A stretch of DNA of 64,000 nucleotides from an uncultured Planctomycetota bacterium (GTDB taxonomy: Bacteria; Planctomycetota; Planctomycetia; Isosphaerales; Isosphaeraceae). This document shows, one piece after another, positions 24,004 to 64,000 of the stretch. A program made the translations under genes and the position numbers. Numbering within the stretch: the first letter of the stretch is position 1; each line of letters begins with the position of its first letter. The notes beneath the pieces are model-generated. The model worked only from the letters and a program-made list of their open reading frames with translations. It was not told the origin of the DNA and made no database searches. The stretch is taken from positions 672,001 through 736,000 of the forward strand of contig CAWGMQ010000011.1 in NCBI GenBank assembly GCA_963823665.1. Reading direction: 5' to 3'.

Positions 24004-24093
24004 CCAGACACCCAACCAATTGTCACGGTTCCCCGCATCCATTCATTCGCGGCACGCAAGTTCGGTGCAAAACCATGGCCTCTGGTCAAGTCG
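24004..24093 (+). mobile_element. MITE/REPIN-like element copy A (left two-thirds)
   Basis: CCAGACACCCA left end plus CATTCATTCGCGGCACGCAAGTTCGG core; stops at a different hairpin repeat. Confidence 0.8.
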
Positions 24094-24096
24094 CAT

Positions 24097-24146
24097 GGAG
24101 ACCTTCGGTCTGGCGGAGGGCGGGGTCGTGAGACCCGCGCCCAACA
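24097..24146 (+). repeat. REP-like hairpin repeat replacing the right end of copy A
   Basis: GAGACC-TTC-GGTCT and GCGGGGTC-GTGA-GACCCGC stem-loops. Confidence 0.5.
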
Positions 24147-24276
24147 ACCCGCCAATCGAAGATTGACCATTCCCTAGGATACTTCTGCGGCCATCCTCCA
24201 CGGGTAATCCGGCGGCCGAGCCGGTGCTTTGAACCGACCTATTCGATGGCCGAGGCCGGTTCATTTGTCGCCCGGC

Positions 24277-24630
24277 TTAGCGATACTCATGGAACGGCAC
24301 GCCGAGCACGAATCGAGTTCCCGCGGTGATTGGGGCAGCGCCGTGCTTGACCGACTGCAATCCTACGAAGCCACCGGTGCGAACGAGACGGTCGCGAGTG
24401 CAGAACAGCACCGCGTCGCCCAAGCCCAGCACGACTTCCCGGCGGAGCGACTTTCTCCGTTCGGGAACATCGCAGAACAGGAACTCGCCTCCCTGGAAGC
24501 CTTCGGTCTCCGCGTCGTCTGGGTCAGTACGCGGGCTCAGCACCACAGCCAGTTGGATCGGGAAAAACAAGGCGCCACGCAAATCGCGGTGCAGAGCATT
24601 GAATCCGCCAGGGCCGTACTTAAGCAGAGG
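24277..24630 (-). pseudogene. 2OG-Fe(II) oxygenase, C-terminal half only
   Basis: LLKYGPGGFNALHRDL (HxD), FQGGEF, KHG, R-x-x-LGVPFH; 5' part replaced by repeat element B. Confidence 0.8.
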
Positions 24631-24805
24631 AGATCCCAGACACCCATCCTTTTGAGATCCCAGACACCCATCCTTTTGTGACGGTCCCCCGCGTTCCATT
24701 CATTCGCGGCTCGCACGTTCGGCGCACAACCACGGTCTCTGGTCATTTCCAGCACGCATCAGGCGAGTGTCCGACGCTCCGCAGACGGTGGGTGTCTGGC
24801 ATCCC
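24630..24805 (+). mobile_element. MITE/REPIN-like element copy B with 24-bp tandem duplication of the left end
   Basis: GAGATCCCAGACACCCATCCTTTT twice (24630-24653, 24654-24677); right end GGTGGGTGTCTGGCATCCC. Confidence 0.85.
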
Positions 24806-24917
24806 AATTCTCGGGCTCAGTCCTCATCCCGTCAGACGATTGACGAGGGCCAGCCCGTCTGCGACAATCGTCGTAGCGATGGCAATCGCCGGACGGACGG
24901 CATCTCAGGAGGTTCCG

Positions 24918-29412: not shown

Positions 29413-29568
29413 CCCGTCGCCGAAGGGTCACACTAGCCTGACGACCCGCTTAGAATCAGCAGTAATCATACTCGAAGCTATGCTACCCACAAGAACTACG
29501 AGCAGGGCGGCGTTGAAAACAGAGAAGCCAGACACCCAATCTCCGGTTCCGAGGAGGAGCCAGGAAAT

Positions 29569-29713
29569 CCAGACACCCATCCTTTGTCTCACGGCCCCCG
29601 CACCCATTCATTCGCGGCACGCAAGTTCGGCGCAAAACCACGGCCTCTGGTCATTTCGAACACGCAGAAGGCCAGTGCCCAACGCTCGGCAAACGGTGGG
29701 TGTCTGACATCTC
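29569..29713 (+). mobile_element. MITE/REPIN-like element copy D (complete), with extra solo left end at 29528
   Basis: CCAGACACCCATCC ... GGTGGGTGTCTGACATCTC. Confidence 0.85.
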
Positions 29714-30097
29714 CGAATCCGCAATTGCCCCCCGAACGCCGGCTGAGCTGGTTGGTCGAACTCTGGGACGTTCAGTCGAGCGGGGCTCTCGTCTCGCCGC
29801 CAAACTCGAATTGACATTGTGCAAGGCGCCGCGGCGCGATCGCGGTAATCGTCAGCCGCCATGCAACCTTCAAGGTTTATGTTGTAAACCCTACAAAATA
29901 AAGGGTTCTGAACCTTTTGATGCCAAGCCATGTATAGTTTCTTTAGACCGCCTGAAGCACCGATGCGATTGGTGCGGGTGGGCGGCGTTCCAGCGCGATG
30001 CGCGGTAGACGTCCCCGGATACGGTCCTTGGGGCGGTGTCACGGTGACGAATCGGGAATGAGCCGAGCGCGGCCATACCCAAGCTCTCCGCGCGGTC

Positions 30098-30927: not shown

Positions 30928-31029
30928 TCAGATGGCCTTTCGTCCTGTCAAACGAATCTGAATCTTCCTTGCCTCCACCTCGGCATCTTCCTCCCTGCGG
31001 ATGAAATACATTTCGGTCGTGTCGGGATC
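30928..31029 (-). pseudogene. C-terminal remnant of a tyrosine recombinase (putative)
   Basis: DPDTTEMYFIRREEDAEVEARKIQIR matches the (GH)xxxxTTxxY catalytic-Tyr tail; cut off at the element's left end. Confidence 0.5.
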
Positions 31030-31907
31030 TCAGACATTGCGCCAGGAAGCTCGGATTAGGAGGATCATCTCAAATGTGAAACTTTTTAGTGGAACCCTGC
31101 GGGTAACCAATCCCGCCCGGCAGAGCCGGGCCAGCAGCCGGAAGTGAGTCTTGCGTGGGGAGAGGCGACTCTCACTGCGAAGCGTAGACAGCGAGATCAA
31201 ACGCTGTGAGATTGAGCCTCGAAATTTCCCTCTTTGTTCTGAGCCCTCGTCCTTGTCTGACGCGGGGGCCGAGCCGGGCATTAGCGACACCTGGACCCAC
31301 TAGCGTGCCTGGTCAGACCGGGGTCGGAGAACATGGCGAATGATCAGTAGGGTTCCCCGGGAACTTGGGAGACCTTGTCGTCTCCATCGTGACGGCCGGC
31401 TGGAGCTCCGGCTTACCAACTCCAGGTTGATCCACAGCTCCATCCCGAGCTGGTGGGGACGAACGATGGTATCGCCAAGCGAAGGAAACGAAGCGCGGCG
31501 AAATGGACGGCAAGGAGTCGGAGTGCCCCATAGTAGTGTTGAAGCGGGGGAACGGCCCTCCGGACCCTGTGGAGCGAAGGGGGCACCGCGTTGTGGATGG
31601 GAAGTTGGAACCACGCTGAGGACACCGTGCCTCACCAGCGTGTCACCGCGAAACGACCTGGTCGTGTGAGGGACAGTGATTCCCCAACGTGACGAGCCGG
31701 ATGCCTCTTCGACGGGCAAGTCCGGATCTGTGGGGGGCCTGGGTGGAAGACCACCCAGGTCTACCCGGCCCCATCCTTTTGTCACGGTCCCCCGGATCCA
31801 TTCATTCGCGGCTCGCACGTTCCGCGCAAATCCACCGCCTCTGGTCAAATCGAATACGCACAAGGCGAGTGCCCGACGCTCGGCAAACGGTGGGTCTCTG
31901 ACATCTC
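31024..31907 (+). mobile_element. MITE/REPIN-like element copy E, interrupted by the group II intron
   Basis: GGGATCTCAGACA|intron|CCCATCCTTTTGTCACGGTCC...GGTGGGTCTCTGACATCTCC. Confidence 0.85.
31037..31769 (+). mobile_element. ORF-less group II intron (733 nt)
   Basis: 5' TTGCG; domain V GAGCCGGATGCC-TCTTCGACG-GGCAAGTCCGGATC (31694-31728, AGC triad); domain VI CCTGGGTGG-AAGA-CCACCCAGG with bulged A 31763; short domain IV without RT; excision restores the repeat's left end. Confidence 0.92.
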
Positions 31908-31993
31908 CTCGCTTGTTGCGACGAACTGAACCACCGCACGGCCCACTGCGTCAAGAAAGGGTGACGATAGTTCCAGCATAAATGGGAAGTACG

Positions 31994-32757: not shown

Positions 32758-32958
32758 TTGGGATCTAGGAAAGCATTCTGGATCGGCTTCGCCCTGTTCG
32801 GCTGGATGTCTCTGGCGCTGGCGCTGATCCCGTCTGTCAGGATTGGGCACTCGCTGATTGCTTTGCTGTTCGGTTGGCTTGGTGGACAACTCTCTCGCCG
32901 TTTTTGCCGAGCTTCCAGAATGAATGAGTCATCGAGGGATTCCAGACACCCATCCTAG
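32758..32958 (+). pseudogene. Fragment of planctomycete membrane protein
   Basis: RKAFWIGFALFGW and IGHSLIALLFGWLGG; no good start; stop lies inside repeat copy F. Confidence 0.45.
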
Positions 32959-32997
32959 TGTCCGACGCTCCGCAAACGGTGGGTGTCTGACATCCCC
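32936..32997 (+). mobile_element. MITE/REPIN-like element copy F (internally deleted, ends only)
   Basis: GGGATTCCAGACACCCATCC joined to AGTGTCCGACGCTCCGCAAACGGTGGGTGTCTGACATCCC. Confidence 0.8.
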
Positions 32998-33311
32998 CGT
33001 TGCAGTCCTCCTTGTGGTAAAATGCCTGAAGCTGAAGGCGATAAGAAAGGGAGGCGAGAAATGCTTGAAATCAAATCATTCGATGCCGTAATCGCGGGTG
33101 GCCGAATTCATAACGAAGAGAATCTGCGTCGTTGGGAAGGAGAAGAAGTCCGAGTCACCGTGCACTTTCGCGCCCGTGAAATTGCAGGCGCCGCTCGCTG
33201 CGTCTGTAAGGTATGACCGGAGCAATCGGGCTCATCGGTCAGATCCCAAGTTCGCCCATTTTTCGCGTGTTGCACGGGACACCCCTCCGCCGCACGTGAG
33301 TAATCCGAGCA

Positions 33312-34472: not shown

Positions 34473-35772
34473 ATGAACAAGAAACGCGGGGCGTCGCGAT
34501 CGGCGCGCGCCGGCACAGCGGCTCCGCCGAGCTCGGCGGCCGAGAGGCGTAGGGCACTGGATGTCGAGCGGGTTCTGCGCTGGGCCGATGCCCACCGCAC
34601 GGCGACCGGGCAATGGCCTGACCGGGGTTCCGGGTCGGTCAGCTCGGTGGACGACGAGAACCTGGTCAGCGATCGACACCGCCTTGAGGCGGGGCCGACG
34701 CGGGCAACCTGGGGGATCGTCGCTGGCCATACTGCTGGCCGAGGAGCGCGGAGTCACGCAAGGGGCTAACCCGGAGTCGCCGGTCGACCGGCTGCGAGCC
34801 TGGGAGGCCGAGCAGTTCCCGACACGGCGGCCACGGCGCCACCGCGCGGCGCGACCGCGCGCGACCACCCGCCTCACGATCGACTTGATCCTGGCCTGGG
34901 CCGACGCGCATCACGCGGCCAACGGCCGGTGGCCGACTGCGTGGTCGTCCGGTCCGGTCTCTGGCGTGCCCGTCGAGACCTGGCCGAGGCTCGACCGCGC
35001 TCTGCGGGTCGGCCGCCGCGGCCTGCGCGGCGGTATTACGCTGGCCCAGTTGCTTGCCGAGCACCGCCAGGCTCCTAACATCTACACGGAGCCATCGCTG
35101 ACGGCCGGGCAGATCATCGCCTGGGCCGAGGCGCACCGCGCCGCCACCGGCCGCTGGCCGTCATCGCGGTCCGGCCCGGTGCGCCACGCCGAGGGCGAGC
35201 ACTGGAACTCGATCGACAACGCCCTGCGCCAGGGCTACCGCGGCCTGCCCGGACGCGAGTCGCTCGGCCGCGTGATTCGCGCGCACGCCGGTCCGCACGC
35301 GTACCGGACCCGCCCCGCGCTCACGGTCGAGCAGCTCCTCGCCTGGGCCAGCGCCCACCGCGAGGCCACCGGCGAGTGGCCCGGCGAAGATTCCGGGTCG
35401 GTCCGCGGGGTACCTGGGGAGAACTGGAAGGCGATCAGCCTCGCGCTGTGCCGGGGCAGTCGCGGCCTGCCCGGCGGCTCGTCGCTCGCACAGCTACTGG
35501 CCCAGCACTGCGGCGCCCGCAACCAGCGGGACCTACCTCGTCTCTCGATCGCGCAGATCCTCGCCTGGGCCGACGCCCACCGCGCTGCGACCGGCCGCTG
35601 GCCATCGGCGATCTCCGACCCCGTGGCCAAGGGATCGGAGGAGACGTGGTCACTCGTCAATATGGCCCTGCACAAGGGCCACCGCGGCCTGCCCGGCCAC
35701 TCGTCGCTGGCCCGCCTGCTGGCGAAGCACCGGGCGCTGCGACCGCGGTGCGCGGCTCGGAGGCCGGCCTGA
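34473..35772 (+). CDS. Protein of five ~65-aa Trp-containing repeats (frameshift near 34660)
   Basis: L...IL.WADAH..ATG.WP...SG.V.....E.W..I..AL..G.RGLPGG.SLA.LL repeated five times across ORFs 34473 and 34561. Confidence 0.75.
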
Positions 35773-40007: not shown

Positions 40008-40071
40008 CAGAATGCCAGTGCCCGACGCTCGGCAAACGGTGGGCGTCTGACATCCCGGTGTCTGACATCCC
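40008..40071 (+). mobile_element. MITE/REPIN-like element copy G (right part, 15-bp tandem duplicated end)
   Basis: GCCAGTGCCCGACGCTCGGCAAACGGTG then GG(C/T)GTCTGACATCCC twice. Confidence 0.78.
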
Positions 40072-40089: not shown

Positions 40090-43004
40090 TCACGGCGCAA
40101 ATGGGTTGGCCGGGAAGCCGCGGTCGAACAGCTCGGCCAGCAGGCGGCGGAAGTCGTCGCGACCGCGCAGTGGGGCGAGGTCGGGATCGCGGCTGGTCTT
40201 GGCGGCATCATTCCACCCGGCGGCGATGGCCTGCTTGAGCGTCTGGACCGCTTGGGCCGCCAAAGCCTGCTGTTGCTCTCCCCGCGCGAGCCGGACGCAG
40301 AGCGCGAGGGCAGCGCCCACGTTGTAAAAGTCGACAGGGTTGTGCTGCGCCAGCGCTGCCAGCTCCCGCGTTGTCTGGATCGCCTCGGCCGGCTGATTCA
40401 GCGCGCCGTGCACTTTCACGAGATTGACCATGTGGGCACGGAGAGCCCGTGGATAGACCGGATGACCGGGCATTGCCTTTAGCGCCGCCCGCTGAGACCC
40501 GATCGCCCGCTCCAGCCGCTCGAGCGCCTGCCTCCATCGGCCCTCGCTCATGTCGAACTCGGCGACATTATTCAGAGCGATGCCCAGACTGCTTTGATAG
40601 GAATGAACCGATGGATGGTCGCGCGCCAGCCGCTCGCAAATCTCCAGGGCCCGCCGGCACCAGTTCAGTGCCTCGGCCGCATGACCCGTGGCGTTCAAGA
40701 CAAAGCTGATGTTCATGCAGTCTTCGGCCAGTTCGCTCTGAAGCTGGGTGACGGAGGGGTTGTCGCGGGCAAGCTGCTCACGAACCTCGAGCGCCTTGCG
40801 GTGCCACTCGAGCGCCTCGGCCGGATCGCCCGCGTTGTACGCCAGGATGCCGATGTTGTAGTGGATCTTGGCGCGGTCGCTCTGGAACGCGATGTCGCCG
40901 GGATGGTCGTGCGCCAGCCGCTCGACTATCTCCAGCGCTTGCCGGCATGACTTCATCGCTTCAGCCGGCTGACCGACCAGGAAAAGCGTCGTGCCGAGGT
41001 TGTCGTAGGTACTCGCCAAATCGCTCTGGTACTCGGTTACGGCGGGATGGTCGCGGGCCAGCCGCTCGCGAATCGTCAGGGCATTCCGGTACGCCTCTAG
41101 CGCCGCCGCCGGATCGCCGGCCATGCGCAGCAGGTTGCCGATGTTGTTGTGGCTGTAGGCAAGATCTCGCTGATAGTTGGCGACCGTGGGATTACCACCA
41201 AAGAGCATCTCGCGGATCGCCAGCGCTCTTCGGTGCGACAAGAGCGCGGCGGCCGGATCGCCCGTGGCGATCAACAGGTTGCCGATGTTGTTGTGGCTTG
41301 CGGCCAGATCGCTCTGGTACTCGCTCTGGGTGGGGTGGTCGCGGGCCAGCCCTTCGAGGATGGCGAGCGCCTCGGTATAGGAGCGAATCGCGTCGGGGAT
41401 GGAGCCAATCTCCGCGGTCGTTCCGGCGAGTTCAAGTTTTGCCCCGGCGAGCCTCGCCAGGGATTCGGCACGGGTGCCGCGGTCGGCCTGGAGCTGATCG
41501 GTAAGCTTGCGGAAGAACTCGAGCGGCTCCCTGAGGAGGGCTTTGCGCAGGGGAGCCAGCTCGAGGTGGTTCTTCAACCCGGCATTGGCCGTGACAGCGT
41601 CGCGGAACTTCTTCACCGCGTCGATGGCCAGCTCCTCGCGCGCAGCGCCAGTTGCCGCTGCCGGCCCAGCTCCCGGTTGTTGGCGACCAGCTCGGCGTTC
41701 TTGCCCGCCAGGACTGTGGCGAAGCCGGCCAGGCCAAGCACGCTTAGAACCAGCACGGCGGCCGTGCTGATTACCAGCGTCCGCCGCCGCCGCAGCCAGC
41801 GCCGCGCCTGAAGCGCGATCGGCTCTGGGTAGGCCGTTACCGGCTCGTCGGCCAGCCACTTGATCATGTCATCGGCCAAGGCGCGCGCCGAGGCATAGCG
41901 GTCAATGGCGCGTGCCGCCAGTGCCTTCAAGCAGATCGCCTCCAGGGCCCGCGACAGCCGCGGATCGCGCTGGCGGGGCGGCACGATCGCCGCGTCACGC
42001 ACCGCGCCAAGCCGGTCGGGGCCGCGCAGGGTCGATTCGTCGAAGGCAGACTTCCCCGTCACAATTGCGTACAGGATCAGGCCCAGGCTGAAAATGTCGC
42101 CGGCGGGGACGGCCGGCTCGCCGCGGGCCTGCTCCGGGCTCATGTATCGTGGCGTGCCCAGGACCTCGCCCGTGGCCGTGATGTCTTCCGGCGACGGGCT
42201 GGGCGACGGGAGCTCGCTGTCCCCCTCGCTCGCTGGCTCGGCCGCGCCGAACGGCTTGGCCAGGCCCCAATCCATCACCAGTGTTTCACCGTAGGGGCCA
42301 AGCATGAGGTTCGACGGCTTCAGATCGCGATGCACGACCCCCTGGTCGTGGGCGTAGGCCACCGTGTTGCAGATCGCGATGAAGTGTTGAAGCAGCGCGC
42401 GGAGCCGCAGGCTCCGGTCGCCGGGATCGGGCGGAAATGGCTCCGGTCTGTGGAAGGCGTTGATCGCCTCCTGGAGCGTCCGGCCCTCGATCAAGGGCAT
42501 GGTGTAAAACGGCCCCCGGTCGTCCTGGCCCAAGCCGTAGATCGGCACGATGCCGGGGTGCTGGAGCCGAGCAGTCAGCACGGCTTCGCGCAGGAACCGC
42601 CGCCGCGCCACCTCGCGCAGCCGGTCGGGACGGATCCGCTTGAGGGCCACGGTGCGGTCGAGCTCTTCCTCGTGAGCGGTGACGACGACCCCCAGCCCAC
42701 CATGGCCATGATGCGAGCGAGGACGATACACCGCCGTGGCGCGCAAGACCTCGGGCAGATCATCAGATTCCCTGGCGGCGCGGCGGGCGCGGTCCGCGGC
42801 CGCTAGATTCGGTTGCCGCACTTCCGTGTCGAGGACCGAGTCGATGGCTTCCAGCGCCTCGATGCGGCGCCGCACCTCCGGTTCCAGCTCCGGGTGGGCG
42901 CAGCACAGCTCCTCGATCGTTGCGGGGGTACCGTGCTCCCGCATCACTTCCCAGCGGTCGACCAGCTCATCGACGTTTGTCTTCGTTTCCATGGGTGCCG
43001 TCAC
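40090..43004 (-). CDS. Ser/Thr kinase with TM and TPR array (frameshift near 41640)
   Basis: GHGGLG, HRDLKPSN, DWGLA, GTPRYMSPE; TPRs LA.SHNNIG.L; end DPDLAPLRGRDDF. Confidence 0.9.
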
Positions 43005-45017: not shown

Positions 45018-45453
45018 CTGGGACCTCGACACAGCGTTTACCGTGCGGGGCAGCCCGCGAGGTTGGCCACGTGGTGGACGCCCGGGCGCACGGCGAATTC
45101 TCGCAGGCGCACGGCTGGCGGCGAAGAAACGGCCGAATGGGTGAGCGCCTCAGTGTGATCGACGGGAGTTACCTGAATCGCCGGTGGTTGTCGAGAATGC
45201 GATGCGTGTCCTTGTTCTTCACCGTGACCCCTTTCTTTCATTCGTGGGATTCGTCAGATTCGTGGTACCTCTTCCCCGCTCCGGGCCACCCAACACGACG
45301 ATCCGACAGAGTCGCACGCTTCGATTGCCCGGACTAAGACGCAATAAGAGGCCCTGACAAGTACTTCCCGCACACCTCGCCGACGATTTCTCGGAACTCC
45401 CGTACGGCTGGCTGAACGTCGCGTGTGACCGCAGGTCGCCTACGGCACTGAAT

Positions 45454-45598
45454 CCGGACACCCACCCTTTTTGTCGCGGCCCCGCATCCATGCATTCGCG
45501 GTACGCAAGTTCGGTACAAAACCACGGCCTCTGGTCAAGTCGAACACGCAGAAGGCCAGTGCCCGACGCTCGGCAAAAGGCGGGTGTCTGACATCCCC
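45454..45598 (+). mobile_element. MITE/REPIN-like element copy H (complete)
   Basis: CCGGACACCCACCC ... GGCGGGTGTCTGACATCCCC with conserved core. Confidence 0.85.
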
Positions 45599-45779
45599 GA
45601 TCGTAGTTGAAATGTGAGCCAGCTCCCCACCGACATTTTCACGCCGCGCCGGGTTGATATCCAGTCCCCGGCTCTCGGATCGACGGAGGAACGATCCACG
45701 CCGTCCGACGACATCCCGCGTCGCGGATGCAAAGGCATGGCGGACCTGCGATAATCGCCCGGACGGTACGCGATTCCCG

Positions 45780-45901: not shown

Positions 45902-48900
45902 ATGACCGCCGCCGCCGACCGCCATCTCCTCTTCGGACTGCTGGCCCTGCAGACCGGCTTCATCCAACAGGCGCAGCTCGTGGCCGCGTTCCATGCCTGG
46001 AGCTGCGACAAGTCGCGGACCCTGGCCGAGCACCTGATCGCGCTGGGGCATCTCAATCCCGCCCGGCGCGCCGCCGTCGAGGCCCTGGCCGCCTTGCACG
46101 TGGAGGCGCAGGGCGGCGACGTGGAGAAGAGCCTGGCGGCCGTCCCCGCCAACCACTCCACCCGCGCCAGCCTGGCGGCGCTGGGCGAGCCCGAGATCGA
46201 GGCGACGCTCGCCCGGGTCACACGGGACAACCATGGCCAGGCCACCGATCGGGACGATGACCTCGACCGCACTTCGACCCTGGCGGTCGGCGGGTCCAGC
46301 GGCGATGGCCGGCGGTTCCGCTTGCTCCGGCCTCATGCGCGCGGCGGGCTGGGCGAGGTGTTCGTCGCCCTGGATGCCGAGCTGCACCGCGAGGTGGCGC
46401 TCAAGCAGATCCTGGAGAAGCACGCCGACGACCCGGTCAGCCGCCAGCGGTTCGTCGCCGAGGCCGAGATCACCGGGGGACTGGAGCACCCGGGCATCGT
46501 GCCGGTCTATGGCCTGGGCACCTACGGCGGCGGGCGGCCCTATTACGCCATGCGGTTCATCAAGGGGGACAGCCTCAAGGAGGCGATCGACGCGTTCCAC
46601 GGTAGCGCGGGCCATGCCCACCGGGGGCACTCCGACGGTCACGCGGCGGTGGGCAAAGCCCACCCGACGGGGACCGGCACGCGCGCGCTGGAATTGCGCA
46701 AGCTGCTCCGCCGCTTCCTCGATGTCTGCAACGCCATCGATTACGCCCACTCCCGCGGCGTGATCCATCGGGATTTGAAGCCGGCCAACATCATCCTGGG
46801 CCGGCACGGCGAGACGCTGGTGGTCGACTGGGGGCTGGCCAAGGCCGTGGGCCGGGCCGACCCGTCGGTCGGCGAGCAGACCATCGCCCCGTCGTCGAGC
46901 GGGTCGTCGGAGACCATGCCCGGCAGTGCCATGGGCACGCCGGCCTACATGAGCCCCGAGCAGTCCTGTGGCGATCTCGACCGGCTGGGTCCTCGTTCCG
47001 ACGTCTACTCGCTGGGTGCCACCCTGTACTGTCTGTTGACCGGCAGGCCGCCATTCGAGGGCGAGGACATCGGCGAGATCCTCCGCAAGGTGCAGGCCGG
47101 CGACTTCCGCGCACCGCGGGAGGTCGATCCCGCACTGGACAAGGCCCTCGACGCCATCTGCCGGACGGCGATGGCGACGAAGCCGCCCGATCGCTACGCC
47201 GGTGGCAAAGCGCTGGCCGAGGACGTCGAGCGGTGGATGGCCGACGAGCCGGTGACGGCCTATCCCGAGCCCTGGACCCGGACTTTGGTCCGCTGGCTGA
47301 CGCGGCACCGGACCGGGGTGACCGGCGTCGCGGCGGCGGTGCTGGCCGGCGTGGTCGGGCTGGTCACCGTGCTCGCGGTGCAATCGACGGCCAACGCCCG
47401 GCTCTCGGCCGCCCTGGCCAGCGAACGGAAGGCCAAAAACGACCTGGCGGCGGCCAACAGCGAGCTGAGCCGCTCGCGCGCCGCGGTGCAGGCTCGCTAC
47501 GACCTGGTGGTCGACGCGATCAAGACGTTCCACACCGGCGTCAGCGAGGACTTCCTGCTCAAGCAGGACCAGTTCAAGGAGCTGCGCGACCGGCTATTGA
47601 GATCGGCGGCGGACTTCTACGGCAAGCTGGGCGCGCTGCTGGGCCAGGAGACGGACGCGGCCGCGCGGCGGGCGCTGGCGCAATCGAACTTCGAGCTGGC
47701 CGAGCTGACGGCCAAGGTCGGCGACGAAGGGGCGGCGCTGGCGGCGCACCGGTCGGTGCTGGCGGCGCGGGAGGCGCTGGCGGCGGAGCCCGGGGCCGAG
47801 GCCGGGCTCGCGGTCGACGTCGTCCGGAGCCTCACCGCCGTGGCGGGGCTGCTGGGGACCGAGGAGGCGCTGGCGGCCTATCGGCGGTCGGAGTCGCTGC
47901 TGGCGGGCCTGACGGGTTCGGATCCGGCGGCGCGAGCCGCGCTGGCGGCCAGCCGGACGTCGCTCGGATGGTTCCTGTGGGGGATGGGACGGCAGGCCGA
48001 GGCGCTGGCGGTCTTCAAGCTGGCGCGGGCCGACCTGGAGGCGCTGGCCGCCGCCTCCGGGGCCTCGAACGACGCCCGGCGCGACCTGGGAGGCACGATC
48101 GTTGGCATCGGCTCCCTACTGTGGCAAACAGGCAAGCCGGCGGAGGCCCAGGCCGAATACCGCACGGCGCTGGCGCTGCTCCAGAAGCTGGCCGATGACA
48201 ACCCCGCCGTCACCGACTTCCGCAACGTGCTGGCCGGCAACCACAACTCCCTCGGCTTCCTGCTTGGGAATACGGGCAAGCTGGCGGAGGCGGAGGCCGA
48301 ATACCGCGCGGCGGTGGCGCTGCTCCAGAAGCTGGCCGACGACTACCCCGCCGTCACCGAATTCCGCAGGCGCGCGGCGGTCTGCCACAACAACCTCGGC
48401 ATCCTGCTTGGGAATACGGGCAAGCCGGCGGAGGGGGAGGCCGAGCACCGCAAGGCGCTGGCGATCTACCAGAAGCTGGCCGACGACAACCCCACCGCCA
48501 CCGGATATCGCGACTCCCTGGCGAACAGCCACAGGGAGCTCGGTCGACTGCTCGCCCGGGAGAAGCGATTCCCCGAGGCGTTCACCGCTCTGGAGACCGG
48601 CCTGGCCCTTTGTCAGAAGCTGGTCGACGCCGATCCCAAGCACAACTGGTACGCAACGGCTCTCGGCGAGAGTTACGCCTTCCGCGGCGGGGCCCGAGTC
48701 CGTGCCGGTCAACCCGCCGACGCCGCCGCCGACCTGCGGCGGTGCGTCGAGGTGTGGGCCGGGGTACCGAAGCTGCCGATCGATGCGAGGTTCGAGCGGG
48801 TCCGGGTGCTGGCGCTCTTGGCCGGGCTGGGTAAGGACCCGAAGTCCGGCGTGACCGCCGCCGAGGCCGCCAGCTTCGCCGACCGGTCGGTCGCCGACCT

Positions 48901-61271: not shown

Positions 61272-64000
61272 ATGCCGACCACCGATCGAGAAGAAGCTCT
61301 TTTCGCCGCGATTCTGGAAAAACCGACCCGGGCCGAACGCGCGGCCTACCTGGAGGGCGCCTGCGGCGCCGACCACCCGCTGCGGGAACGCATCGAGGCC
61401 CTGCTGGCTGCCCACGACGCCTCGAACGGCGTCCTGGATGCTCCGCCTCCTGTGCCAACCACGACACCCCCTCCCCTCACGGAAAAGCCCGGCACGGTCA
61501 TCGGCCCGTACAAGCTGCTCCAGCAGATCGGCGAGGGGGGCATGGGCGTCGTCTACATGGCCGAGCAGCTCGAGCCAGTCCGCCGCAAGGTCGCACTCAA
61601 GATCATCAAGCCCGGCATGGACAGCCGCCAGGTGATCGCCCGGTTCGAGGCCGAGCGCCAGGCCCTGGCGATGATGGACCACCAGAACATCGCCCGCGTC
61701 CTCGACGCCGCCACAACGGAAAGTGGTCGGCCCTATTTCGTCATGGAGCTGGTCCACGGCGTGCCGATCACCCGGTTCTGCGACGACAACAAGCTGACAA
61801 CCCGCGAGCGGCTGGCGTTGTTCGTGCCCGTCTGCCAGGCGATCCAGCATGCCCACCAGAAGGGCGTCATCCACCGCGACGTCAAGCCGTCCAACGTCCT
61901 GGTGACCATGTACGACGACAAGCCGGTGCCCAAGGTGATCGATTTCGGCGTGGCCAAGGCGATCGAGCAACGACTCACGGAAAAGACGATGTTCACCCAT
62001 TACGGCGCCTTGGTCGGCACCTTCGAGTACATGAGCCCCGAGCAGGCGGAGATGAACGCCTTCGGCGTGGACACGCGCAGCGACATCTACTCGCTTGGCG
62101 TGTTGCTCTACGAGCTCTTGACCGGGACGACGCCGCTGGAGCGCACTCGGCTGCGCGAGGCGGCGCTCGACGAGATGGTGCGGTTGATCCGGGAGGAGGA
62201 AGCGCCGCGGCCGAGCCTCCGGCTCAGTAGCTCGGGCGACCTGCCCAGGATCGCCGCCGCGCGCAAGACCGAGCCGGCGCGGTTGTCGAAGCTCGTCCGT
62301 GGCGATATCGACTGGATCGTGATGAAGTGCCTGGAAAAGGACCGGTCGCGGCGCTACGAGACGGCCAACGGCGTGGCCCGCGATCTGGAGCGCTACCTCG
62401 CGGACGAGCCCGTGGAGGCGTGTCCGCCGAGCTCGAGTTACCGGCTGCGCAAATTTACCCGCAAGCACAAGAAGGCAATCGCGACCACGGCGGCGTTTGC
62501 GGCTCTTTTGGTGGCAGGCGTGGTGATGAGCACGTTGATGGCGGTGTGGGCTAACCGGCAACGGATGGCCTCGGAGGTGGCGAGGCAAGAGGCGAACCAG
62601 CAGCGAAGGGCCGCGGAGGCGGCGAAGCAACAGGCCTTGGATGCCAGAGCTGAGGCAGACAGACAGCGCGACGAGGCACGTCTTACCGCCTATGCGTCCG
62701 GGATGGGGCTGGCCCAGCGTGCCTGGGAAGAGAGTAATGTCGTCCGCGCCCGCGAATTGCTCGAAGAGGTGCCCCGGGAGGCGACTGGCAGAACTCTGCG
62801 TGGGTTCGAGTGGTTCTATCTGTCCCGCTTGTGCCATCCCGACGAGCTGACCCTCTCAGGCCATTCCGGGTTGGTCATGAGCGTGGCGTTCAGCGGGGAC
62901 GGTCAGCGCGTGGCTTCGGGGAGCACGGATCACACCGTGAAGATCTGGGATAGCGCCACCGGCAAGGAGCTATTCGACCTCAAGGGGCATTCTGGTGCGG
63001 TCTGGAGCGTGGCGTTTAGCGGGGATGGCCAGCGCGTGGCTTCGGGGAGCACGGATCAGACGGTGAGGATCTGGGATAGCGCCACTGGCAAGGAGCTCTT
63101 CGCCCTCAAAGGCCATACCGGTGAGGTCCCGAGCGTCGCGTTCAGCCCGGACGGCCAGCGCGTGGCTTCGGCGAGCCGGGACCAGACGGCGAAGATCTGG
63201 GACATCGCCACCGGCAAGGAGCTCTTCGCCCTCAAGGGCCATGTCCATTGGGTTTTGAGCGTGGCGTTCAGTCCTGACGGCCAGCGCCTGGCGTCGACAA
63301 GCTCTGACAAGACGGTGAAGATCTGGGATAGCGCGACCGGCAAGGAGCTGTTCACCCTCGAGGGCGATGCAGTTTGGCTCGGGAGCGTGGCATTCAGCCC
63401 AGACGGCCAGCGTCTTGCGTCGACGGGCCCTGACCCGACGGTGAAGATCTGGGACAGCGCGACCGGCAAGGAGCTATTGGCCCTCAAGGGCCATGCCGGT
63501 AGCGTCACGAGCGTGGCGTTCAGCCCGGACGGCCAGCGCGTGGCTTCGGGGAGCATGGATCAGTCGGTGAGGATCTGGGATAACGCCACGGGCAAGGAGC
63601 TATTCGCCCTCAAAGGCCATGCCGGTTGGGTCAGGAGCGTGGCGTTCTCTCCGGACGGCCAGCGCCTGGCTTCGGGGAGCGATGACCAGACGGTGAAGAT
63701 CTGGGACTGCGCGACCGGCAGGGAGTTCTTCGCCGTCAAGGGCCATCCACGTTGGGTCGCGAGCGTGGCGTTCAGCCCGGATGGCCAGCGCCTGGCGTCG
63801 GCGAGCCACGACCGGACCGTGAAGATCTGGGATTGTGCGACCGGCGATGAGCTGGTCGCCCTCAGGGGCCATGACTCTGATGTCACGAGCGTGGCGTTCA
63901 GCCCGGACGGCCAGCGCCTGGCGTCGGGGAGCTGGGACAAGACGTTGAGGATTTGGGACAGCGCGACCGGCAAGGAGCGGTTCGCCCTCAAGGGCCATGC
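61272..64000 (+). CDS. Ser/Thr kinase with TM and WD40 repeats (runs off window end; absent from the ORF track)
   Basis: ATG 61272 after GGAG; IGEGGMG, HRDVKPSN, DFGVA, YMSPEQ; WD40 repeats from 62859. Confidence 0.93.
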   Translation, partial: MPTTDREEALFAAILEKPTRAERAAYLEGACGADHPLRERIEALLAAHDASNGVLDAPPPVPTTTPPPLTEKPGTVIGPYKLLQQIGEGGMGVVYMAEQLEPVRRKVALKIIKPGMDSRQVIARFEAERQALAMMDHQNIARVLDAATTESGRPYFVMELVHGVPITRFCDDNKLTTRERLALFVPVCQAIQHAHQKGVIHRDVKPSNVLVTMYDDKPVPKVIDFGVAKAIEQRLTEKTMFTHYGALVGTFEYMSPEQAEMNAFGVDTRSDIYSLGVLLYELLTGTTPLERTRLREAALDEMVRLIREEEAPRPSLRLSSSGDLPRIAAARKTEPARLSKLVRGDIDWIVMKCLEKDRSRRYETANGVARDLERYLADEPVEACPPSSSYRLRKFTRKHKKAIATTAAFAALLVAGVVMSTLMAVWANRQRMASEVARQEANQQRRAAEAAKQQALDARAEADRQRDEARLTAYASGMGLAQRAWEESNVVRARELLEEVPREATGRTLRGFEWFYLSRLCHPDELTLSGHSGLVMSVAFSGDGQRVASGSTDHTVKIWDSATGKELFDLKGHSGAVWSVAFSGDGQRVASGSTDQTVRIWDSATGKELFALKGHTGEVPSVAFSPDGQRVASASRDQTAKIWDIATGKELFALKGHVHWVLSVAFSPDGQRLASTSSDKTVKIWDSATGKELFTLEGDAVWLGSVAFSPDGQRLASTGPDPTVKIWDSATGKELLALKGHAGSVTSVAFSPDGQRVASGSMDQSVRIWDNATGKELFALKGHAGWVRSVAFSPDGQRLASGSDDQTVKIWDCATGREFFAVKGHPRWVASVAFSPDGQRLASASHDRTVKIWDCATGDELVALRGHDSDVTSVAFSPDGQRLASGSWDKTLRIWDSATGKERFALKGH
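62859..64000 (+). repeat. Tandem 126-bp WD40-coding repeats (9 complete plus start of a 10th)
   Basis: GH/GD codons at 62859, 62985, 63111 ... 63993, exact 126-bp period. Confidence 0.9.

Follow-up and report, generated by a model that had tools for sequence, protein, structure and literature searches.

How does a group II intron that codes for no reverse transcriptase (RT) come to lie in the terminal repeat of a small repeated element, and whose protein carried it there? The question is raised by a stretch of 64,000 nt (hereafter, the window; positions 672,001–736,000 of contig CAWGMQ010000011.1, assembly GCA_963823665.1) from an uncultured planctomycete of the family Isosphaeraceae, in which a preliminary description, made from the sequence alone, had noted an intron without an RT open reading frame (ORF) interrupting one copy of a miniature inverted-repeat element. 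We consider it probable (roughly 80%) that this is a non-autonomous group II intron of the RF02005 lineage that retrohomed into the end of the repeat via its exon-binding site 1 (EBS1), with the RT supplied in trans.

The intron and its host element

Searches with the Rfam group II models, the comparative fold and Pfam agree on a 733-nt intron (31037–31769; Table 1) with a domain V, a domain VI with a bulged A and no RT ORF, as had been described. Family RF02005 (group-II-D1D4-6) matched positions 31107–31333 with 108.5 bits (E 8.9e-30, against a gathering score of 49), being the sole Rfam family to reach its gathering score across the window. A local search with RF00029, which covers domains V and VI, matched positions 31692–31769 with 32.4 bits (E 2.8e-4), under its gathering score of 40, and the end of this match is the final intron base that had been proposed. 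In a consensus fold of nine ORF-less introns from five genomes, 66 of the 213 predicted pairs were kept through changes on both sides, and none of the three intron ORFs tested (109, 187, and 86 aa) had a Pfam match at E<=0.01. The ends of the intron were located by comparison with an empty site and, as the four junction positions carry different bases, only one placement of its boundaries is possible.

When the intron was excised in silico, its flanks, which belong to families D3 and D8 of the repeat finder, joined into an inverted-repeat unit of ~156 nt, with end-to-end identities of 85.3, 89.4, and 84.3% to the uninterrupted copies at 24652–24812, 29562–29718 and 45447–45602, respectively. 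The claim that removal of the intron leaves a left end nearly identical to that of the first of these copies was borne out, since the alignment has no gap up to 10 nt from the junction, where 23 of 25 columns are identical. The terminal inverted repeats of the element are ~19 bp long (GGGAT..CAGACACCCAYC) and fold as a stem in the uninterrupted copies. Their 13-nt core occurs 64 times genome-wide, vs. none for a reversed control, and a 139-nt query comprising the interior and the right end of the copy at 24654–24812 found at least 43 matches in the host genome, taken from the best 40 of 102 candidates. Small, multicopy and bounded by inverted repeats, the element has the shape of a miniature inverted-repeat transposable element (MITE); the term refers here to its shape and is unproven as a class, because no target-site duplication was evident at the four window copies and a non-exhaustive search for a transposase-bearing partner found no inverted pair of exact motifs 0.5–5 kb apart among the 64 hits. 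An assignment to the type formed by repetitive extragenic palindromic (REP) sequences and REP-associated tyrosine transposases (RAYT) was considered and dropped: the candidate gene, a 248-aa ORF on the reverse strand (locus L021:483–1229) situated 230 nt upstream of an RT-bearing intron, has an HLHLV-type motif, from which a Y1-type transposase might be guessed, and has no Pfam match (E<=0.01).

The end of the repeat is also found by itself in tandem duplicates, with periods of ~24–29 nt and others, in the window (24630–24677 and 40040–40070) and elsewhere in the host genome (C11:556416–556559, C6:1648631–1648743, and C10:2567910–2567988), at times immediately upstream of an intron (loci L010 and L026); intron-associated repair or unequal exchange are possible origins. 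Additionally, a left half-element at 24005–24149, with 61% gapless identity to the reference copy of the repeat finder, departs after ~100 nt into unrelated GC-rich DNA, ~480 nt upstream of the copy at 24654.

Table 1. Features of the intron and of copies of its host element in the window.
Feature	Coordinates	Strand	Description
ORF-less group II intron, family 1	31037..31769	+	733 nt; 5' UUGCG, 3' GC; Rfam matches, covarying fold, no Pfam ORF
5' exon	31024..31036	+	Outer 13 nt of left terminal inverted repeat (GGGATCTCAGACA), of which the final six, CAGACA, form IBS1
Domain I core	31107..31333	+	RF02005, 108.5 bits, full model (1–225)
Hairpin described as EBS2 (CAGCG/CGCTG)	31189..31207	+	Loop AGATC at 31194–31198; unsupported as a hairpin
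Long-range helix closing the distal arm of domain I	31195..31345	+	31195–31199/31341–31345 and 31202–31208/31332–31338
Domain I hairpin with EBS1	31243..31269	+	9-nt loop at 31252–31260, UGUCUG at 31254–31259; Rfam structure line and covariation
Domain IV remnant	31523..31691	+	In place of the ~1.4-kb RT ORF of full-length relatives; stem and degenerate ORF start retained
Domain V	31694..31728	+	AGC triad (31695–31697), bulge, 8-nt loop; RF00029 alignment; pairs invariant or compensated
Domain VI	31732..31766	+	Bulged A at 31763, 7 nt from 3' end; 3' tail GGC at 31767–31769; helix covaries
3' exon	31770..31908	+	Remaining element: inner left repeat CCCATCC, interior, and right inverted repeat to ~31908; families D3/D8
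Uninterrupted element copy (copy B of the preliminary description)	24652/24654..24812	+	24-nt tandem duplicate of left end upstream (24630–24653)
Uninterrupted element copy	29562/29564..29716/29718	+	Repeat family and alignment
Uninterrupted element copy	45447/45449..45602	+	Repeat family and alignment
Short form of element, 62 nt	32937..32998	+	Two repeat ends, 20-nt spacer; hairpin of -17.7 kcal/mol, z -4.24

EBS1 and the choice of target

The host genome (16.46 Mb in 12 contigs, 92% complete) contains at least 45 matches to the intron, in two families; copy counts are lower bounds, because of the completeness of the genome and because the best 40 of 76 candidates were counted. Family 1, to which the window intron belongs, comprises sequences of 89–100% identity, and family 2, its sister family, is 72% identical to it.

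The motif TGTCTG at 31254–31259, taken for EBS1 in the preliminary description, is part of the 9-nt loop in one of the hairpins of the Rfam model and is complementary at six of six positions to CAGACA, the intron-binding site 1 (IBS1) in the 5' exon. Comparison of the same six alignment columns with the last six exon bases, in introns of the host genome and of ten others, revealed seven covarying EBS1/IBS1 combinations: UGUCUG/CAGACA, GGACGC/GCGUCC, UGCCUG/CAGGCA, CGUUUU/AAAGCG, GGUCAG/CUGACC, UGUCAG/CUGACA, and AGACAC/GUGUCU, the last one from the sister family. On comparative sequence grounds, this covariation proves the position of EBS1. Among 16 family-1 and related introns, pairing with the own exon is complete in 11, 5/6 in three, 4/6 in one and 2/6 in another, and it is complete in 19 of the 20 family-2 copies.

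The other family-1 copies do not sit in unrelated flanks, which would have spoken against a lineage aimed at the repeat of the element: among 13 distinct 5' junctions of the family in the host genome, eight are exactly after CAGACA and three are within two mismatches of it, mostly with GGGA or GGA upstream, as in the repeat, and two are elsewhere. Likewise, the one full family-1 copy of the sister species sits after GGATTCCAGACA. One of the two off-target copies, L003, has an altered EBS1 loop that pairs 6/6 with its own, different exon, and is therefore a retargeted variant.

Family 2 uses the same repeat on the other strand. All its 20 copies have GGGTGTC(T/C) upstream and GACATCC-like bases downstream, which together restore the repeat, and their insertion point is 5 nt from that of family 1, itself 13 nt inside the repeat. 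These copies sit in the right ends of the element, in left ends, in tandemly duplicated ends and in solitary motifs; the presence of the sister family in both ends agrees with the earlier suggestion that each element offers two sites. Identity among 13 ORF-less family-2 introns averages 98.9% (78 pairs). For four copies located in right ends, intron identity is 98.1% vs. 91.2% for the adjoining element flanks; together with the lack of relationship between the outer flanks, this indicates separate insertions into elements that had already diverged, and not copying along with the element.

These comparisons bear directly on whether the introns could have multiplied passively, together with their host element or its surroundings, instead of by retrohoming. 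Tandem units of exon stub, intron and exon stub (locus L016), the frequency of tandem duplicates of the repeat end, and the clustering of introns and elements in a few regions are what passive copying would leave. It would not, however, be expected to produce an EBS1 that covaries with the exon in seven combinations, introns more alike than their flanks, or insertions in both element ends, in short derivatives and in solitary motifs with unrelated outer flanks, and no extended identical flanks beyond the element were seen among the intron-bearing copies compared. We thus consider passive multiplication very unlikely.

Head-to-tail arrays of introns occur at L016:1455–2944 (C10:1458.5–1460.0 kb), L008 and L024/L002. 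In an array of two family-2 introns, a 24-nt spacer repeats the exon stubs, and an RT-bearing family-2 intron ends 34 nt ahead of a family-1 copy.

The second proposed contact with the exon was not supported. A hairpin CAGCG/CGCTG with loop AGATC had been read as EBS2; the letters are there, but in nine related introns 73.3% of its cells are paired vs. 71.9% in shuffled alignments, and 170 of 500 shuffles reached as high a value. The bases of this candidate belong instead to a competing long-range helix of domain I (31195–31199/31341–31345 plus 31202–31208/31332–31338), which was predicted by RNAalifold on the same alignment later used to test its pairing. In that helix paired cells make up 95%, vs. 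81.5% in shuffles, none of 500 reaching the observed value; 5 of its 12 pairs are changed on both sides, and slid controls give 21–43%. Therefore, of the two motifs that had been placed in EBS loops, TGTCTG is within a hairpin loop and AGATC is part of a long-range helix. An alternative EBS2 in the internal loop 31222–31239, which gives 7 bp in the sister family and in one relative, was likewise not supported, as its complementarity to the own exon is not above the non-self background: for the two candidate loops, mean values for own vs. other lineages' exons were 4.33 vs. 4.18 and 3.5 vs. 3.45 (12 lineages).

Domain IV and the probable source of the reverse transcriptase

RT-bearing relatives align to the window intron only over its nucleotides 42–544 and 651–733, with ~1.4 kb in between; domain IV (~31523–31691, ~170 nt) is therefore an ORF-free remnant. 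In family 2, the ORF-less and RT-bearing forms are nearly identical for the first ~485 nt and then diverge. The ORF-less domain IV, which retains a basal stem and a degenerate ORF start, is common to families 1 and 2 and shows compensatory changes.

Among the host-genome matches listed, family 2 comprises 14 ORF-less copies (~732 nt) and six RT-bearing copies (~2 kb). The RT ORF is 450 aa long, with the YADD motif, in two of the six, and ends at 419, 375, 375, and 284 aa in the others. The 450-aa product matches NCBIfam TIGR04416 (group II RT/maturase) with 330 bits, vs. a cutoff of 300, and in Pfam it matches RVT_1 only, with no nuclease domain. The preliminary description had called for an RT-bearing sibling with the same EBS1, and this was not found: the RT-bearing siblings in the host carry AGACAC and are directed to the other strand. 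Overall, repeat-directed targeting and the two sites per element were upheld, while neither the EBS2 assignment nor this sibling was. Other genera do have RT-bearing introns whose 5' end resembles that of family 1, and two of the RTs are 81 and 65% identical to that of family 2. From these close RTs elsewhere and the lack of an RT-bearing family-1 copy among the host-genome matches listed, trans-mobilisation of family 1 by the RT of family 2 is the most economical inference.

In the mechanism that we favour, the EBS1 loop UGUCUG of the excised intron RNA would pair with CAGACA at the repeat end of the ~156-nt element, the RNA would reverse splice between CAGACA and CCCATCC, and DNA copying would be carried out by an RT provided in trans, most likely that of the sister family of the host genome (72% identical), a 450-aa RT/maturase without endonuclease. 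Priming would come from the replication fork, as proposed because this RT has no endonuclease domain; fork priming is established for other introns with endonuclease-less RTs.

Several observations weigh against this reading. Group II introns have the consensus ends 5'-GUGYG...AY-3', to which the UUGCG...GC of the window intron does not conform; a TTGCG or TCGCG start is present in 24 of 24 relatives, so that its start is typical of the lineage. The second off-target family-1 copy, L002, lies after TGCCATCC and forms just 2/6 pairs with its own EBS1. With no EBS2 established, the six base pairs of EBS1 cannot by themselves explain the specificity. No RT-bearing family-1 copy is among the host-genome matches listed, nor was one found in the sister species by tblastn at three loci with four family-1 copies; a family-2 RT acting on family 1 would have to work across families at 72% RNA identity. 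Of its family, the window copy alone is full-length and uninterrupted among the host-genome matches listed; two others are split in domain VI by another intron and the rest are truncated or internally deleted, with 89–96% identity. Because these copies are broken and diverged, family 1 looks old and may be extinct. Additionally, no sequencing run matched more than 29% of the sampled words, and contigs from two DNA and two RNA soil runs compared at 85% likeness, only fragments and mostly of relatives, showed no exon-exon joint (31036–31770).

One DNA contig of these runs (156 nt, no differences) crosses the 3' junction of the intron. Metatranscriptome contigs from soil (X13 and X15) contain fragments 85–99% like the intron within 31072–31774, e.g., 98 nt with two differences, which may derive from DNA carry-over or from relatives. 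The window copy presumably splices, and may still be active.

The main rival explanation is that a cognate family-1 RT, since lost or located in the unassembled 8% of the genome, moved the intron, leaving the window copy as a stranded fossil that at most splices. In four genomes of other genera (G008, G014, G015, and G022) there are RT-bearing introns that are family-1-like over the first 41 nt and domain I, with 72–79% identity from nt 1, and the divergence (89–96%) and mostly broken state of family 1, vs. the 98.9% uniformity of family 2, would fit one dead and one living family. Conversely, RTs of this clade are close to each other, as seen with those of family 2 and two other genera (81 and 65% identity), both ORF-less families share the domain IV remnant and, in the part of the Thermosynechococcus study that we draw on (PMC2882425), some RTs mobilise diverged ORF-less families. 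We therefore regard a lost cognate RT as unlikely, and prefer mobilisation by the RT of family 2.

The lineage extends beyond the host: 17 of the 41 genomes searched, host included, contain it, as do 13 of the 24 genomes from the host's family other than the host itself. The core of the repeat has 64 copies in the host and 45 in the sister species, vs. 0–3 in each of the 39 other relatives (0–1 for the control); among these 41 genomes, the motif is thus expanded only in this genus. Introns from other genera have other EBS1 sequences, most of them having UGUCAG and lying after CUGACA. The two strands of the repeat core, TGTC-T-GACA and TGTC-A-GACA, differ by T/A, so that a single change in the EBS1 loop would be enough to shift the site between strands. 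The unique flanks of the window locus had no orthologue in the sister species, where the hits were to the repeat plus one 250-nt match at 70%. Full-length introns that lack the ORF and whose domain IV remnant covaries are present in at least five genomes, from four genera. A broader interpretation, which we advance only tentatively and which may well not hold, is that the ORF-less form is a long-lived, constrained partner of RT "driver" introns, comparable to a short interspersed nuclear element (SINE), maintained across genera with a conserved domain IV and re-aimed by single-base changes in EBS1; in this genus it would, with the sister family, have captured the quasi-palindromic core (TGTC-T/A-GACA) of a newly expanded repeat, the change from UGUCAG to UGUCUG switching the strand.

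The same conservation could instead reflect a self-sufficient or domesticated RNA, either a protein-free ribozyme that targets DNA, as reported for the ORF-less class IIC HYER RNAs, or an RNA conserved for a host function, and integration or hydrolysis of DNA without protein is published for some group II ribozymes, as described in the part of PMC11754743 considered here. However, all genomes studied in detail also have RT-bearing relatives, the intron, at 733 nt and with its large domain I, does not resemble class IIC, and its copies decay, become truncated and are invaded by other introns as selfish DNA is, with no link to host genes. Such an RNA is in our view most improbable, the least credible of the explanations considered, and borrowing of a relative's RT remains the preferred one.

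Other introns accompany the two families. A third family (RF02012; RT with RVT_N and RVT_1) forms twintrons in five introns of both families, two of them RT-bearing, at one spot of domain VI and after CTGTGGGA (L002:2200–3707, L003, L019, L025, and L026; e.g., C6:913.7 kb). A fourth type, RF02003 (RF00029 match of 63.4 bits), lies beside or inside broken family-1 copies (L028:1787–2047 and L038:582–725, at C8:1395.9 kb and C5:1041.2 kb), so that the genome has at least four Rfam domain I types. Recurrent pieces of family 1 end at intron nt ~112, and in internally deleted mini-forms nt 1–112 are joined to 581–688 or have 428–607 after them (L029, L027, and five matches of nt 1–112 in L031–L034), which suggests a common break point or a further miniaturised derivative. 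Unrelated to introns, the window has long tandem arrays with periods of 126 nt (62848–63999), 144 nt (40560–41370 and 48108–48552, also a distant inverted pair, I1) and 222 nt (34565–35710); these look like coding repeats, with a codon-like spacing conserved in the 222-nt unit.

Comparison with known systems

The following comparisons draw on parts of the papers cited. In the literature on group II introns associated with MITE or REP sequences we found only a table in which two of nine Pseudomonas putida group II introns are next to REPs (PMC1525189). The intron UHB.I2 (subgroup IIB1, soda-lake metagenome), with UUGCG...GU ends, shares with the window intron, in a comparison of ends only, the 5'-UUGCG start; it differs in encoding an RT, adjoining an integron attC site and ending in GU rather than GC (PMC7923331). 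Insertion in or next to hairpin-forming DNA, and the existence of ORF-less forms, recall the class IIC and HYER introns (PMC4424553, PMC11754743). However, class IIC introns are of ~400–600 nt, have no EBS2 and insert after a hairpin, whereas the window intron inserts within a stem by a 6-bp EBS1; it does not fit this group in its mode of insertion, in its 733-nt size or in its best Rfam family, RF02005.

Introns homing into introns, as in the nested introns of Methanosarcina acetivorans, find self-renewing, harmless sites (PMC4424553), and the RF02012 introns in domain VI of five copies resemble them; unlike in that archaeon, the primary target here is a repeat that is not an intron.

A close parallel for a majority of ORF-less copies is Thermosynechococcus elongatus, where one ORF deletion gave rise to 17 ORF-less introns, vs. 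eight RT-bearing ones (Mohr, Ghanem and Lambowitz 2010, PMC2882425). In its TeI3/TeI4 introns, which the window system resembles, the ORF was deleted from domain IV, the families have diverged EBS/IBS sequences, one family uses a conserved site in an insertion sequence (IS) and another sits inside introns as twintrons, and driver RTs act in trans (PMC2882425). That action was demonstrated by assay for TeI3/TeI4, whereas in the window system it is only probable. TeI3/TeI4 are recent relatives within one genome, whereas the ORF-less form described here, with its domain IV remnant, is common to several genera; the target also differs, being here the repeat end of a miniature element.

Targeting itself has a precedent in RmInt2 of Sinorhizobium meliloti GR4, which inserts in the inverted repeats of ISRm17, whereby the number of sites is doubled and a lagging-strand site is guaranteed (PMC4615759). 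The homing habit is therefore already known. In both systems the sites are provided by the terminal inverted repeats of a second mobile element, two per element and on opposite strands; shared as well are an RT without endonuclease, head-to-tail copies, and a 72%-identical sister intron with a different target in the same genome. Nevertheless, RmInt2 carries an RT gene of its own and resides in an autonomous IS, whereas the window intron is ORF-less and its host a ~156-nt element without transposase; also unlike RmInt2, both sister families enter the same repeat core, on opposite strands and at points 5 nt from each other. The window intron, placed by its RF02005 match only, may also belong to a different ribozyme lineage.

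The window case leaves the known mechanism unchanged. It would be a well-resolved natural example of how an intron survives by shedding its RT gene, borrowing the RT of a relative and targeting harmless sites that multiply by themselves, and in its seven natural EBS1/IBS1 combinations evolution has in effect run a retargeting experiment on one ribozyme scaffold. With four domain I types, twintrons, arrays and an ORF-less majority, the genome could serve as a model of intron proliferation outside the cyanobacteria. A review describes bacterial ORF-less introns as rare, short-lived and, in nearly all cases, found together with related RTs (PMC4424553); the conservation of the present ORF-less form across genera suggests that such introns are under-counted. 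What is particular to this case, compared with the systems above, is the combination of a miniature host without transposase, two sister families on one core and an ORF-less form that spans genera.

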